Below are positions 2,417-6,228 of a stretch of 24,000 nucleotides of DNA, one piece after another. Position 1 is the stretch's first letter, and the number at the start of each line of letters is the position of its first letter. Source of the DNA: Geopsychrobacteraceae bacterium (lineage in GTDB: Bacteria; Desulfobacterota; Desulfuromonadia; Desulfuromonadales; Geopsychrobacteraceae); the NCBI GenBank assembly GCA_963677135.2, contig CAXXLS010000009.1, positions 74,834 to 98,833 of the forward strand. The letters run 5' to 3'. Made by a program: the position numbers and the translations under genes. The notes under the pieces are model-generated. The model saw only the letters and a list, made by a program, of their open reading frames with translations, was not told the origin of the DNA and ran no database searches.

Positions 2417-3618
2417 TTGCGCTTGTTCCGCTCTTTTTTCTGCTGGCTGGCCTTGAGCAGATCGCCCAGGGTCCCCATCCCTGAAGAAACAGGTTTGTCG
2501 GAATAACTGGTCTCCATCACCTCTTCGTCCGCATTGCCGGCCAGGGCCAGACTGATACGGCGTTCCGCCAGGTCGACCTTTTCAATCACGACATTGAGGC
2601 TCTGTCCCACCGTCAGCACATCCTGGGGATGGCGGACGCGCTGCCCCCCTTCCCCCAGTTTGGAGATATGCAGCAGACCGTCGACGCCATCCTCCAGGGT
2701 GACAAAGGCGCCGAACTGAGCCAGGCGGCTGACTTTGCCCGAATACTGGCCACCCGCCTTGTAGATGGTTCCGACCTTGCTCCAGGGATCGGCCAGGGTA
2801 TCGCGCAGGCTGAAGGAGAACTTGTTGTTCTCCCAATCGATCTTTTTAATGGCGACCTCGATCTGCTGGCCAACGTGGAGCACGTCATTGACATCTTCGA
2901 TACGGCCGTAGCTGATCTCGGAAATGGGCAACAGCCCTTCAATGCCGCCGATATCCACGAAGGCCCCGAAATTGAGGATATTGGTGACTTCCCCCGTGAC
3001 GACCATGCCCTCTTTGAGACTCTTGCGCAGACTTTCGCGCTGCTGCTGGCGTTCCTCGTCAAGCAGCTGGCGGTGGGACACGACGATATTGCGACCGCGT
3101 TCACTGAACTGGGTAATCTTGAATGACAGGCTGGTCCCGATCAGGTCGGCCGGTTCCCCCTGGCGGATGCCGGTCTGGGAGAAAGGGCAGAACGCCCTGA
3201 TATTTCCGGCCAGCTTGACTTCAAAGCCTCCCTTGATCTCTTTTTCAATGCGCCCCTCGACAGGGATGCCGCTCTGATAGGCATTCTCCAACTGTTCGGT
3301 TCCGGAACCGCTGCCGCCGACCTTGGTCGTAAAACGCAGCTCGCCGCCACTGCGAGACAGGAAAAAGACCGCAATTCTGTCACCAGCCTGGAACTGGGGC
3401 TCGCCCTCGGCATTCAGCAGTTCGGCTGTTGCCAGCACCCCTTCACCTTTCTGACCGACATCGAGAAAGCTCCAGTCCTTGCCGATCTGCAGCAAGGTCC
3501 CTTCGATCTTCTGCCCCGGTTCGAGCTGCTGTCCGACCCCCGACAGGCTGGCTTCGAACATGGCTGCAAAATCTTCTTCCTCTGCGCTGAACTCGTCGTC
3601 TCTGAAATCGTCACTCAT
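2413..3618 (-). CDS. S1 RNA-binding domain protein (four S1 domains, acidic N-terminus, basic C-terminal tail)
   Basis: Four S1-like segments are visible, for example GMVVTGEVTNILNFGAFVDIGGIEGLLPISEIS and GGQYSGKVSRLAQFGAFVTLEDGVDGLLHISKLG. I placed the start at the ATG at 3618 (MSDDFRDDEF), which follows GAGGA. The track start at 3681 has no RBS. Confidence 0.85.
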   Translation of the reverse strand: MSDDFRDDEFSAEEEDFAAMFEASLSGVGQQLEPGQKIEGTLLQIGKDWSFLDVGQKGEGVLATAELLNAEGEPQFQAGDRIAVFFLSRSGGELRFTTKVGGSGSGTEQLENAYQSGIPVEGRIEKEIKGGFEVKLAGNIRAFCPFSQTGIRQGEPADLIGTSLSFKITQFSERGRNIVVSHRQLLDEERQQQRESLRKSLKEGMVVTGEVTNILNFGAFVDIGGIEGLLPISEISYGRIEDVNDVLHVGQQIEVAIKKIDWENNKFSFSLRDTLADPWSKVGTIYKAGGQYSGKVSRLAQFGAFVTLEDGVDGLLHISKLGEGGQRVRHPQDVLTVGQSLNVVIEKVDLAERRISLALAGNADEEVMETSYSDKPVSSGMGTLGDLLKASQQKKERNKRK

Positions 3619-3975
3619 GACCCAATCCTCTTTGTTGACTGGTTTTCCTTCTGAAAACCTGGCCGCAGACACCCGGAACATCCGAAGCTCCGCAACCGGA
3701 TAAAAAGGGAAAGATTAGCCCTTTTCAGAGAGAGAGTAAATGGAGAGATTGGTATTTTATCTGAAAAATGCCGCTGGCATTTTGATAAATGAAAAAATAG
3801 ACATTCAAGCCGGGCAGCGGCTTTGCGGTTCTGCCCGTTGATGCGTCAGCATCCGGGCGGGCTCTCATGTGCTGGCGACAGCAATAAATCGCAGACGGAC
3901 TCAGTTGTCGTCAGTGTGTTTGACCTTCAAGGGCATTTTTGCTTCCTTTTGTTGCCCAGGACAAAAGGAAGCCGG

Positions 3976-4001
3976 CTGCCGGGCCGGGACCCGGCGGTTT
4001 T
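3976..4001 (+). terminator. terminator-like GC hairpin plus T4 (T1 of unit 1; equivalents at about 4439-4463 and 4894-4919, degenerate at 5354-5380)
   Basis: CTGCCGGG-ccggga-CCCGGCGG forms an 8-bp stem with one G-U pair, followed by TTTT. It is present in units 1-3. Confidence 0.45.
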
Positions 4002-4065
4002 GATGGTGCTTTAATGTTTTAACAGAAACAGTCAAAGACAAGGTCGCGGGGTCGCGCCCCCGCCC

Positions 4066-4123
4066 GGCGCCTTACTATTTGTCCCAGGCGGGCGACAAAT
4101 AGTAAGCACAAAACGCCCTTTTT
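4066..4123 (+). terminator. long hairpin plus T5 (T2 of unit 1; equivalents in units 2 and 3)
   Basis: CTTACTATTTGTC (4071-4083) pairs perfectly with GACAAATAGTAAG (4094-4106). GGCG/CGCC extends the stem across a bulge. TTTTT follows at 4119-4123. Confidence 0.45.
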
Positions 4124-4223
4124 ACATGTCCGGATGACGATCAGCAATTCCCAGTAGGGAGACATTCAGGCTGGCAACGACCCGGCCCACGCTGAGCAGG
4201 CTCAGCTAAAGGCCAGAACCACA

Positions 4224-4242
4224 AAAACACCAAAGGTGTTTT
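4224..4242. terminator. A-tract/hairpin/T-tract element at the unit 3' end (T3; equivalents at 3765-3783, 4685-4703, 5141-5159)
   Basis: The sequence is AAAACACC-aaa-GGTGTTTT here and AAAATGCC-gnt-GGCATTTT in the other copies. It is symmetric, so it could terminate transcription in either direction. The minus strand reads T5 after the stem. Confidence 0.5.
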
Positions 4243-4266
4243 GACCGTTGAAAAGACCCTCACCTC

Positions 4267-4723
4267 CAAGCCGCAAAGCGGCTTTACGGTTCTGCCCGTT
4301 TATGCGTCAGCATCCGGGCGGGTTGTCATGTGCTGGCGACAGCAATAAATCGCAGACGGACTCAGTTGTCGTCAGTGTGTTTGACCTTGATAAGATCTTT
4401 TTGGTTCGTTTTTCCATCGTTGGGAAAAATGAACCCGGCTGCCGGGCCGGGACCGGCGGTTTTGATCTTGCTTTAAGGTTTAAACAGATACAATCAAAGG
4501 CTAGACCGCGGGGTCGCGCCCCCGCCCGGCGCCTTACTATTTGTCCCAGGCGGGCGACAAATAGTAAGCACAAAGCGCCCTTTTTACATGTCCGGATGAC
4601 GATCAGCAATTCCCTGTTGGAGACATTCAAGCCAACAACGACCCGGCCCACGCTGAGCAGGCTCAGCTAAAGGCCAGAAACGCAAAAATGCCGTTGGCAT
4701 TTTGATAAATGATCTGTGATCTT
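4267..4723. repeat. array unit 2 (type B)
   Basis: It carries the B-type hairpin GGTTCGTTTTTCC/GGAAAAATGAACC at 4403-4435, in place of the A hairpin. The flanking sequence is conserved with units 1 and 3. Confidence 0.9.
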
Positions 4724-5183
4724 CAAGCCGCAAAGCGGCTTTGCGGTTCTGCCCGTTGATGCGTCAGCATCCGGGCGGGTTGTCATGTGCTGGCGACAGC
4801 AATAAATCGCAGACGGACTCAATTGTCGTCAGTGTGTTTGACCTTCAAGGGCATTTTTGCTTCCTTTTGTTGCCCAGGACAAAAGGAAGCCGGCTGCCGG
4901 GCCGGGACCCGGCGGTTTTGATGGTGCTTTAAGGTTTTAACAGAAACAGTCAAAGACAAGGTCGCGGGGTCGCGCCCCCGCCCGGCGCCTTACTATTTGT
5001 CCCAGGCGAGCGACAAATAGTCAGCACAAAGCGCCCTTTTTACATGTCCGGATGACGATCAGCAATTCCCAGTTGGAGACATTCAGGCTGGCAACGACCC
5101 GGCCCACGCTGAGCTGGCTCAGCGAAAGGCCAGAACCACAAAAATGCGGTTGGCATTTTGACAGAGGCAACATATTCAATTTC
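4724..5183. repeat. array unit 3 (type A)
   Basis: The A-type hairpin is at 4859-4890. The unit differs from unit 1 by a few substitutions, for example in the 13-bp stem at about 4990-5025 (AGTAAG to AGTCAG). Confidence 0.9.
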
Positions 5184-5423
5184 CAAGCCGCGCAGCGGCT
5201 TTGCGGTTCTGCCCGTTGATGCGTCAGCATCCGGGCGGGTTGTCATGTGCTGGCGACTGCAATAAATCGCAGACGGACTCAATTGTCGTCAGTGTGTTTG
5301 ACCTTGATAAGATCTTTTTGGTTCGTTTTTCCATCGTTGGGAAAAATGAACCCGGCTGCCGGGCCGGGACCCGGCGACCTTGATCTTGCTTTGCAGGTTT
5401 TTAACAAAAACAGTCAAAGACAG
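5184..5423. repeat. array unit 4 (type B, truncated after about 240 bp)
   Basis: The B-type hairpin is at 5320-5352. Homology to the other units ends after GTCAAAGACA at about 5423. Confidence 0.85.
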
Positions 5424-5529
5424 AACCACCGGAGCGACACCCGCAAGACACAAGCCTGTTTGCCTTTTTGAAATTCAATGGTATTTTCTAATTCTCAAAA
5501 AACATTATAACCCGTGAGGACATGTCACC

Positions 5530-6228
5530 ATGAAACCGACCAGCTGGCTGGAAAGTCTGAATTGTGCAATTGAGGGGATCCTCTGGGCGGCCCGCGGCGA
5601 GCGCCATGTCCGCTATCACCTGTCTGCCGCCCTGGCCGTGGTCTTTCTGGCCCTCTTCTTCAAGGTCTCGGCCATGGAGTTTTTTCTGCTGGTGCTGGCC
5701 GCCGTCATCGTCATCTTTGCCGAGCTGATGAACACCGCCATCGAGGCGGTCGTCGACCTGGTCACCGACGAATATCACGAGCTGGCGAAACGCGCCAAAG
5801 ATGTCGCTGCCGGAGCCGTCCTGGTGACCAGCATCGGAGCCATCGTCCTCGGTTACCTGGTCCTGTCAGGGCATATCTTCACTCTCTTCGACAGCCAACC
5901 GACCCTGATCCAGGAGCCCCGCGGCACGGTCCCCGTCGGCGCGCTGCTGATGGTCATTATCCTGGTTGTGCTGTTCAAGTCACGCTTCAACCACGGCACC
6001 CCGTTGCACGGCGGCATGCCCAGCGGCCATGCGGCCATCGCGTTTTCCATCGCCACCTCGACTCTGTTGCTGGGCGACAACCTGGTCATCGGCCTGCTGG
6101 TTCTGCTCCTGGCCCTGCTGGTCAGCCAGAGCCGCCTGCTGATGAAGATTCACACGCCGCGGGAAGTCTTCCTCGGGGCCCTGCTCGGCACCGCAGTGAC
6201 CCTTTTTACCCATCTGCTATTCAGCTAG
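5530..6228 (+). CDS. diacylglycerol/undecaprenol kinase (DgkA) fused to a PAP2 lipid phosphatase domain
   Basis: The N-terminal half has the DgkA signature ELMNTAIEAVVDLVTDEYHELAKRAKDVAAGAVL. The C-terminal half has PAP2 motifs PSGH and SRLLMKIHTPREV (SRx5Hx3E/D). GAGGA lies about 10 nt upstream of the ATG. Confidence 0.85.
   Translation: MKPTSWLESLNCAIEGILWAARGERHVRYHLSAALAVVFLALFFKVSAMEFFLLVLAAVIVIFAELMNTAIEAVVDLVTDEYHELAKRAKDVAAGAVLVTSIGAIVLGYLVLSGHIFTLFDSQPTLIQEPRGTVPVGALLMVIILVVLFKSRFNHGTPLHGGMPSGHAAIAFSIATSTLLLGDNLVIGLLVLLLALLVSQSRLLMKIHTPREVFLGALLGTAVTLFTHLLFS

Follow-up and report, generated by a model that had tools for sequence, protein, structure and literature searches.

Palindromic repeats that are multicopy, intergenic and non-coding are known from Enterobacteria, as the REP (repetitive extragenic palindromic) elements and the bacterial interspersed mosaic elements (BIMEs), and from Pseudomonas, as the REPINs. 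They are found in inverted pairs, either tail-to-tail or head-to-head, and also form mosaic arrays in which the orientation alternates and the linkers are of two kinds. REP sequences also coexist as several sequence types (Y, Z1 and Z2), with the hairpin kept by compensatory change, and all of these repeats are biased to the 3′ ends of genes, confined to particular lineages and vertically persistent. Here, we describe an element sharing these traits that was found in a Geopsychrobacteraceae bacterium (assembly GCA_963677135.2), in a stretch of 24,000 nucleotides of contig CAXXLS010000009.1 (positions 74,834 to 98,833), hereafter referred to as the window. On the plus strand of the window, 3.6 tandem copies of a unit of approximately 459 bp occupy positions 3764-5422 (unit alignment, and Tandem Repeats Finder (TRF) with a period of 456 and 85% matches). 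The unit is an imperfect palindrome of 440-460 bp, in which a structured motif of approximately 85 nt, designated motif M, closes each arm of approximately 200 nt, and the covariation observed among its copies points to a fold formed within a single strand.

Relation to described repeats

Judged by its anatomy, the element appears closest to REP/BIME/REPIN-type repeats, from which it also departs in several respects. A REP sequence is one hairpin of 20-40 nt, whereas the arms described here hold five to six hairpins together with pseudoknot-type pairings, and the unit measures 440-460 bp, so that it does not count as a short palindrome. As in REPINs, inverted doublets are present at high copy number (34 of 34 tail-to-tail, approximately 76 units), but the GTAG tag that REPINs carry at the hairpin foot was not seen, and the Y1-transposase-like genes of this genome, which resemble REP-associated tyrosine transposases (RAYTs), are not flanked by the element. 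A GC-rich stem with a U-rich tail on each strand, the two facing each other, is shared with bidirectional intrinsic (Rho-independent) terminators; moreover, the solitary units of a relative (genome G014) lie mostly in convergent gaps, as do such terminators between convergent genes. Nevertheless, a homologous structured region of approximately 150 nt precedes each hairpin here, the loop pairs with upstream bases, the U tails are often weak, and the same cassette occurs tens of times per genome, in tandem arrays.

Some likeness also extends to the Correia/NEMIS repeats of Neisseria, the ERIC repeats and the BOX repeats of pneumococci, which are non-autonomous, fold as RNA, are co-transcribed with their neighbours and can terminate or stabilise transcripts; BOX, in addition, is modular, with a tandemly repeated middle module. 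Unlike these, the present element is much longer and carries covarying pseudoknot-type pairings, and neither terminal inverted repeats with target-site duplication nor, with transposase flanks searched at two Y1 genes, a matching insertion sequence was identified. With respect to the terminal inverted repeats of miniature inverted-repeat transposable elements, here the whole unit is the inverted repeat, and comparing the filled with the empty site gave no clear duplication. Within the same order, Pelobacter carbinolicus contains multicopy sequences, Pcar_R10## and Pcar_R11##, that form two families alternating in intergenic arrays (Aklujkar et al. 2012, Table S1, PMC3543383). These arrays begin and end with the same family, as in R1001-R1101-R1002-R1102-R1003-R1103-R1004, and the sequences are listed there with function unknown and no structure described (PMC3543383). 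Compared by description only, they may belong to the same family as the element reported here. In the literature, we found no description of its structure, its pseudoknot pairings, the palindromic unit or its order-wide distribution.

A palindromic unit with a strand-specific, covarying motif

Motif M is strand-specific and is composed of a variable hairpin of 12-16 bp, followed by a GC hairpin of 6-8 bp with a 6-nt loop, and then by a U-rich tail. Alignment of the left half of the unit with the reverse complement of its right half extended from end to end, with 72% identity and a score of 81, as compared to 34 ± 7 for shuffled sequences. Moreover, the structural model R2 matched every unit of the window on both strands, with 66-71 bits on the plus strand and 27-36 bits on the minus strand. 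In the alignment covering many genomes, each of the 34 pairs of neighbouring motifs was tail to tail, with 10-50 nt in between, and none of these neighbours lay on the same strand or head to head.

To count base pairs, 131 distinct homologous copies from many genomes were aligned with a structural model of two stems, which was used because register shifts in the variable hairpin make column-based counts unreliable when sequence alone guides the alignment. In the variable hairpin, 95.4% of cells were paired (39-56% in slid controls) and 13 of the 14 modelled pairs had changed on both sides, while in the GC stem 94.7% of cells were paired and six of eight pairs had changed on both sides. The pseudoknot helix, formed by alignment columns 79-82 with 95-98 and lying outside the model, was paired in 95.2% of cells, its outer pairs being CG in 57, GC in 38 and UA in 23 copies at one position, and GC in 76, CG in 27 and UA in 19 at the other. 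None of 500 shuffles reached the observed pairing values. In addition, five hairpins show compensatory changes in a set of 16 units from about four genera.

The topology of this helix is that of an H-type pseudoknot, as the first four loop bases of the GC hairpin pair with four bases located 2-3 nt upstream of the stem. The pairings seen are CCGG:CCGG, GCGG:CCGC, GCGT:ACGC, GCGC:GCGC and TCGC:GCGA, together with TCGG:CCGA in the commonest hairpin type of the window genome (type C, see below). A perfect 4-bp pairing was present in 51% of distinct parses, as compared to 8% with shuffled partners. When the alignment model held a 6-bp GC stem only, and neither the long hairpin nor the pseudoknot, the pseudoknot helix was paired in 87% of cells, against 29-51% in slid controls, and each of its two outer positions showed three pair types. 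Judging from these counts, the loop pairs outside its own hairpin and covaries with its partner, as defines an H-type pseudoknot, and the strand that folds would be either RNA or single-stranded DNA.

The strand on which the fold forms is indicated by a U·G wobble in the basal pair of the GC stem, which was detected in 123 of the 131 copies and, within the 34 tail-to-tail pairs, in its own orientation in 32 of the 34 members on each strand. Because each arm retains this wobble in its own strand, and because the covariation is interleaved, we take both strands to fold singly, as RNA or as single-stranded DNA and not as a duplex.

One hairpin, several long-lived types

An earlier note on this DNA had described two hairpins, A and B, that replace each other between conserved flanks, and both are present in the sequence as it had placed them. 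The type A hairpin (GCTTCCTTTTGT / ACAAAAGGAAGC) has a perfect 12-bp stem at 3941-3952 / 3961-3972, and again at 4859-4890, and the type B hairpin (GGTTCGTTTTTCC / GGAAAAATGAACC) has a 13-bp stem with one G·T pair at 4403-4415 / 4423-4435, and again at 5320-5352; both are flanked by the conserved GTGTGTTTGACC and CGGCTGCCGGGCCGGGAC. The segment between two flanking anchors was then extracted from every copy in the window genome, which yielded 20 hairpins of type A, 11 of type B and 42 of a third and commonest type C (CTCCCTTTTCTTTG, a 4-5-nt loop and CAAAGAAAAGGGAG), plus one intermediate form, D. The RNA fold predicted for the A segment has an energy of -37.0 kcal/mol (z -2.9) and that of a type C segment from another array -37.1 kcal/mol (z -4.7); for the B segment, the prediction was -32.6 kcal/mol (z -2.7) on the plus strand, but only -22 kcal/mol on the minus strand.

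Across the whole order, the hairpin was found to retain a similar length and position despite replacement of its primary sequence, with massive compensatory change. On the other hand, A and B cannot be regarded as unrelated sequences, as had been suggested. Types A, B and C have a common geometry, in which the 5′ arm is rich in pyrimidines, the 3′ arm is rich in purines and the U4/A4 core is invariant, and there are also intermediates; the common geometry and core make them homologous hairpins rather than unrelated inserts. Altogether, these results show that A, B and C are long-lived variants of one hairpin, the foldability of which has been kept by compensatory change. A unit devoid of a hairpin at this position was also found. 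In a distant relative from another family of the order (G028, L152:1900-2650), two adjacent units of approximately 344 bp are present, the second of which is devoid of the leader and variable hairpin (approximately 58 nt), while its GC hairpin and the remainder are kept.

The exchanged piece behaves as a module, as the note had proposed. In the window, the left flanks of A and B units are approximately 94% identical (own count on the alignment), and between different arrays left-flank identity is 0.753 for pairs of the same type and 0.763 for pairs of different types. Flanks are therefore uncoupled from the hairpin type, and the leader and hairpin reassort as one block. Recombination or gene conversion has redistributed the hairpin types among units, with breakpoints flanking the whole leader-hairpin domain. 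Chimeras are rare, and two such copies look like recombinants between types: one combines a B-type 5′ arm with an A-like 3′ arm, leaving the stem broken (L156:12965-13099, minus strand), and the other a GGCCA leader with a TGCCC loop, leaving the pairing broken (L144:7152-7286, plus strand).

It had also been observed that the 15 nt leading into the hairpin differ between A and B; this is correct, and can be refined in that the leader, through base pairing with the loop of the hairpin, is part of the module and differs for that reason. The loop is complementary to the leader one U-run upstream, and both change together across relatives. The leader:loop pairs seen are GGGCA:TGCCC (type A), GGCCA:TGGCC, AGCCG:CGGCT, AGCCA:TGGCT, AAACG:CGTTT and AGGCTG:CAGCCT, and in relatives of B either CAAGCGAT:ATCGCTTG or CAAGTGATG:CATCACTTG. 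In loops of at least 6 nt, and with a conservative parse, the longest Watson-Crick run between leader and loop averages 3.4, as compared to 2.56 ± 0.11 with shuffled partners, and runs of at least 5 bp are present in 30% of copies versus 2.4% across classes. Types with loops of 4-5 nt, C included, are without leader-loop pairing.

Finally, strict alternation of A and B, and the idea that they act as an alternating pair, are contradicted by the arrays found genome-wide, with orders that include AACC, ACCCA, CBCBB, CCBC, AAA, ACCC, CBBB, CCCC and AABAB. Given such mixed orders, the types follow no alternation rule. The ABAB order of the window results from a recent duplication of a two-unit A-B block of 918 bp, the copies of which are 97% identical, whereas adjacent copies show the 85% matches given above.

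Distribution in the genome and in the order

The unit matches about 100 places in the window genome, where approximately 76 units are distributed over approximately 22 arrays of 1.2-5 units, totalling about 35 kb or 0.9% of the genome. Two of these arrays are located at contig ends (G000 C18:1-1136 and C10:6-667), the repeat breaking the assembly, and the true number of units is probably higher than 76. Of 151 Desulfuromonadales genomes sampled, 129 (55 of 63 genera) contained the motif when searched with a model of the region, often with at least 26 matches per genome, as compared to none of 150 genomes from the rest of the phylum. The ORFs (open reading frames) that cross the hairpin do not support a coding role, as the modules measure 46, 47, 49 and 50 nt and shift the frame between types. 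Overall, the element is shown to be non-coding, multicopy and confined to the Desulfuromonadales. A pattern scan of genome contigs for the GC-rich flank returned mostly chance matches in high-GC genomes, and among the matches listed were two relatives, a Desulfuromonadales and a Geopsychrobacteraceae metagenome-assembled genome; a contig search for the neighbouring gene gave no match.

Units inside one array have diverged from each other to the same extent as from units located elsewhere, and most arrays are therefore not recent local amplifications. Array starts tend to lie in the left-arm GC hairpin and array ends in the right-arm GC hairpin, with no sharp boundary common to the array ends. 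In relative G014, where units are solitary, 14 of 25 are placed between convergent genes, eight between tandem and three between divergent genes, as compared to nine, 45 and 17, respectively, for the other gene pairs in the same loci (gene orientation being taken from crude longest-ORF calls), and the gaps to the flanking ORFs are mostly 20-200 nt. In the window genome, a rough ORF reading placed seven arrays between convergent, 11 between tandem and two between divergent genes.

The array in the window

Unit alignment divides the array into U1 (type A, 3764-4222), U2 (type B, 4223-4683), U3 (type A, 4684-5139) and a partial U4 (type B, 5140-5422), all on the plus strand. The plus-strand motif M of U1 spans 3929-4007 (68.6 bits with R2, in addition to the fold and the pair counts). 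It comprises leader a (3931-3935), stem b (3941-3952), a loop at 3953-3960 that includes a′ (3953-3957), and b′ (3961-3972); then a2 (3972-3975), GC stem c (3976-3983), a loop at 3984-3989 that includes a2′ (3984-3987), c′ (3990-3997) and the U tail (3998-4001). In U2, the motif extends over 4390-4469 (66.2 bits), with stem b at 4403-4415, its loop at 4416-4422, b′ with the G·U pair at 4423-4435, a2 at 4435-4438, c at 4439-4446, the second loop at 4447-4452 and c′ at 4453-4459. The plus-strand motifs of U3 (4847-4925, 68.6 bits, hairpin at 4859-4890) and U4 (5307-5387, 71.3 bits, hairpin at 5320-5352) lie in units that are 97% identical to U1 and U2, respectively.

On the minus strand, U1 carries motif M at 4034-4120 (36.5 bits, fold and palindrome alignment), composed of the TTACTATTTGTC and GGGGTCGCGCCCC hairpins read on the other strand and arranged tail to tail with the plus-strand copy; its counterparts are found at 4496-4582 in U2 (35.3 bits, 72% half-to-half identity) and at 4952-5038 in U3 (27.1 bits). 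An outer hairpin of the right arm (A-run, stem, T-run), together with the variable inter-unit linker, occupies 4223-4264 (repeat family D5), and equivalent pieces are present at 3764-3805, 4684-4721 and 5140-5181. According to the palindrome alignment, this outer hairpin mirrors the first hairpin of the left arm, and the unit alignment shows that the linker is hypervariable and only approximately 20 nt long. The AT-rich central spacers between facing motifs (4000-4045, 4462-4505 and 4918-4960) contain a conserved AACAG..ACA(A/G)TCAAAG, the ATCAA core of which looks, by eye, like half of an integration host factor (IHF) site. Further upstream, a CGTCAG block, to be compared with the unpaired GTAG or CGTC tag that REPINs have at the hairpin foot, is conserved 30-40 nt before the hairpin in part of the order, and is replaced elsewhere by CGACAG, CGCAG or CGCCAG.

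The locus is without the array in six of six congeners, in which the S1-domain gene and the dgkA-PAP2 gene are directly adjacent, and the array is therefore a lineage-specific gain. Approximately 105 nt between the array end and the dgkA-PAP2 start (5423-5529) are also missing from the empty sites of the congeners, so that the inserted block reaches beyond the recognisable repeat. This stretch contains GCCTGTTTGCC, similar to a motif, GC(C/T)TG-TT(T/C)CAT, that is conserved in two other genera immediately next to either end of solitary units, beyond the first hairpin of each arm (L148:1230-1260, L149:890-915 and L153, in G014/G023). The latter motif does not fit the sigma-70 or sigma-54 consensus.

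Searches for known families and signals

No match to the window was obtained in Rfam 15 at gathering scores, and allowing E-values up to 10 over 3600-5560 returned chance-level matches only, with E above 3; a known self-cleaving ribozyme was among the candidates discarded, as none appeared in the Rfam scan. A type I toxin-antitoxin system or a hairpin pairing a Shine-Dalgarno with an anti-Shine-Dalgarno sequence was likewise discarded by reasoning, as no start codon is placed at a suitable distance in all of the types, on either strand. A promoter scan of the array revealed no sigma-70-like promoter, and inspection by eye revealed no -35/-10 or sigma-54 motif conserved between genera; nor was any further indication of a separate RNA gene found. 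A terminator pattern scan flagged the GC hairpins of units 1-3, and many copies read GACCTTGAT or GGTGTTG in place of the U tract.

The window genome encodes two Y1-transposase-like genes (PF01797 matches). An association with a RAYT was discarded, as the flanks of both genes share nothing with the unit. Beside one such gene lies a separate repeat of 50-60 nt (L158:922-981, G000 C16), which occurs in at least six other loci (C12, C17, C9 and C14) and is probably the RAYT-like gene's own REP family, unrelated to the 460-bp unit.

Possible function of the element

We tentatively favour the view that the element is a two-sided 3′-end cassette carried on a REP/BIME/REPIN-like intergenic repeat and transcribed inward from both flanks. 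The repeat would spread or expand within genomes in the manner of such repeats, and read-through from both flanking genes would transcribe the unit towards its centre. At the RNA level, each transcript would end in a terminator-like GC pseudoknot hairpin preceded by a protective structure, serving in termination, protection or both. In the variable hairpin, structure is what would count, and the sequence could drift freely while the stem and the loop-leader pairing are kept. Inward read-through is favoured because the 'sense' direction of each arm runs towards the centre, with a GC hairpin and its U-rich tail at the end, because solitary units are close to their flanking genes, and because no promoter is visible.

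Several points weigh against this cassette. Transcription, termination and action at the RNA level are all steps that we infer, and single-stranded DNA, too, is able to form G·T pairs and pairings like those of a pseudoknot. Many copies have a weak U tail, such as the GACCTTGAT of type C and of the last unit of the window, and arrays of three to five units exceed what a terminator needs. Moreover, neither an enzyme that would mobilise the element nor a target-site duplication nor exact ends were identified, the search of transposase flanks covering the two Y1 genes only. The bias towards convergent genes could merely mark sites that tolerate insertions, and the array of the window itself is placed between divergent genes.

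A further step, which we consider doubtful although still worth stating, would be to regard motif M as an undescribed RNA domain on a self-propagating palindromic cassette, placing paired structured 3′ ends, or RNAs derived from 3′ untranslated regions, between genes throughout the order. In that case, the loop-leader pairing specific to each type would serve as a compatibility code, under which recombinant copies would be functional only if leader and loop share the same type.

Two alternatives to the inward-transcribed cassette, both unlikely and to a similar extent, deserve consideration. In the first, which takes up the note's idea of a specificity module in an RNA, each unit or arm would be an independently transcribed small regulatory RNA, in which the hairpin with its loop and leader is a targeting or partner-recognition module, so that A, B and C units would address different targets or pair mutually. 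Such a role would agree with the strand-specific structure, strong covariation and terminator-like 3′ end, with the persistence of discrete hairpin types across species of the genus, and with the placement of type-specific sequence in the loop and the single-stranded leader. However, the promoter searches described above argue against independent transcription, and divergent promoters would have to be placed in the short hypervariable linker. The solitary units of G014 are near both flanking genes, the copy number (at least 76, or 0.9% of the genome) is far above that of known small RNA families, the commonest type C has a 4-5-nt loop without leader pairing, and the types do not alternate.

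In the second, which we judge improbable, hairpins and loop-to-flank pairings would form in single-stranded DNA and be recognised or cleaved by an enzyme moving the element, for instance a transposase of the HUH/Y1 kind (IS200/IS605 or REP-associated) or a recombinase, with a 4-nt 'guide' at the hairpin foot pairing with its target as in IS608, and the unit would be a giant REPIN. The inverted-pair architecture does resemble REP dimers and REPINs (for the concept, see PMC3116915 and PMC3733652). The array of the window is a lineage-specific insertion, copy number varies between genomes, two Y1-transposase-like genes are present, and a 4-nt segment at the 5′ foot of the hairpin covaries with a 4-nt partner. 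That partner, however, is the hairpin's own loop, whereas the guide of IS608 pairs with the flanking cleavage site and not with the loop of its own hairpin. Furthermore, neither Y1 gene is flanked by any part of the unit and one has its own unrelated short repeat, target-site duplications and sharp common ends were not seen, and the divergence of units within arrays indicates that most arrays are old. Least of all do we expect the arrays to function as duplex DNA, for instance by offering nucleoid proteins or gyrase a field of binding sites, like the BIMEs of E. coli, with hairpins being palindromic protein sites only: the mosaic with alternating orientation and two kinds of linker recalls BIME-2, and the ATCAA half-site recalls IHF sites by eye, but the one-orientation wobble on each arm and the interleaved pseudoknot-type covariation would be meaningless in a duplex, and stem sequences are free to change provided that pairing stays.

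Significance for the Desulfuromonadales

If the proposed two-sided cassette is correct, up to approximately 1% of these genomes, which belong to environmentally important metal- and sulfur-reducing bacteria, would consist of one uncatalogued, structured and strand-specific element. It would extend the REP/BIME/REPIN idea to multi-hairpin arms of 200 nt and offer an example, open to testing, of a gene-end signal that is two-sided and portable, while the more than 130 distinct variants of the hairpin-plus-pseudoknot fold would be a natural data set for work on RNA structure. For genome annotation, the element would account for many of the long 'empty' intergenic regions, and for contig breaks, in assemblies of the order.

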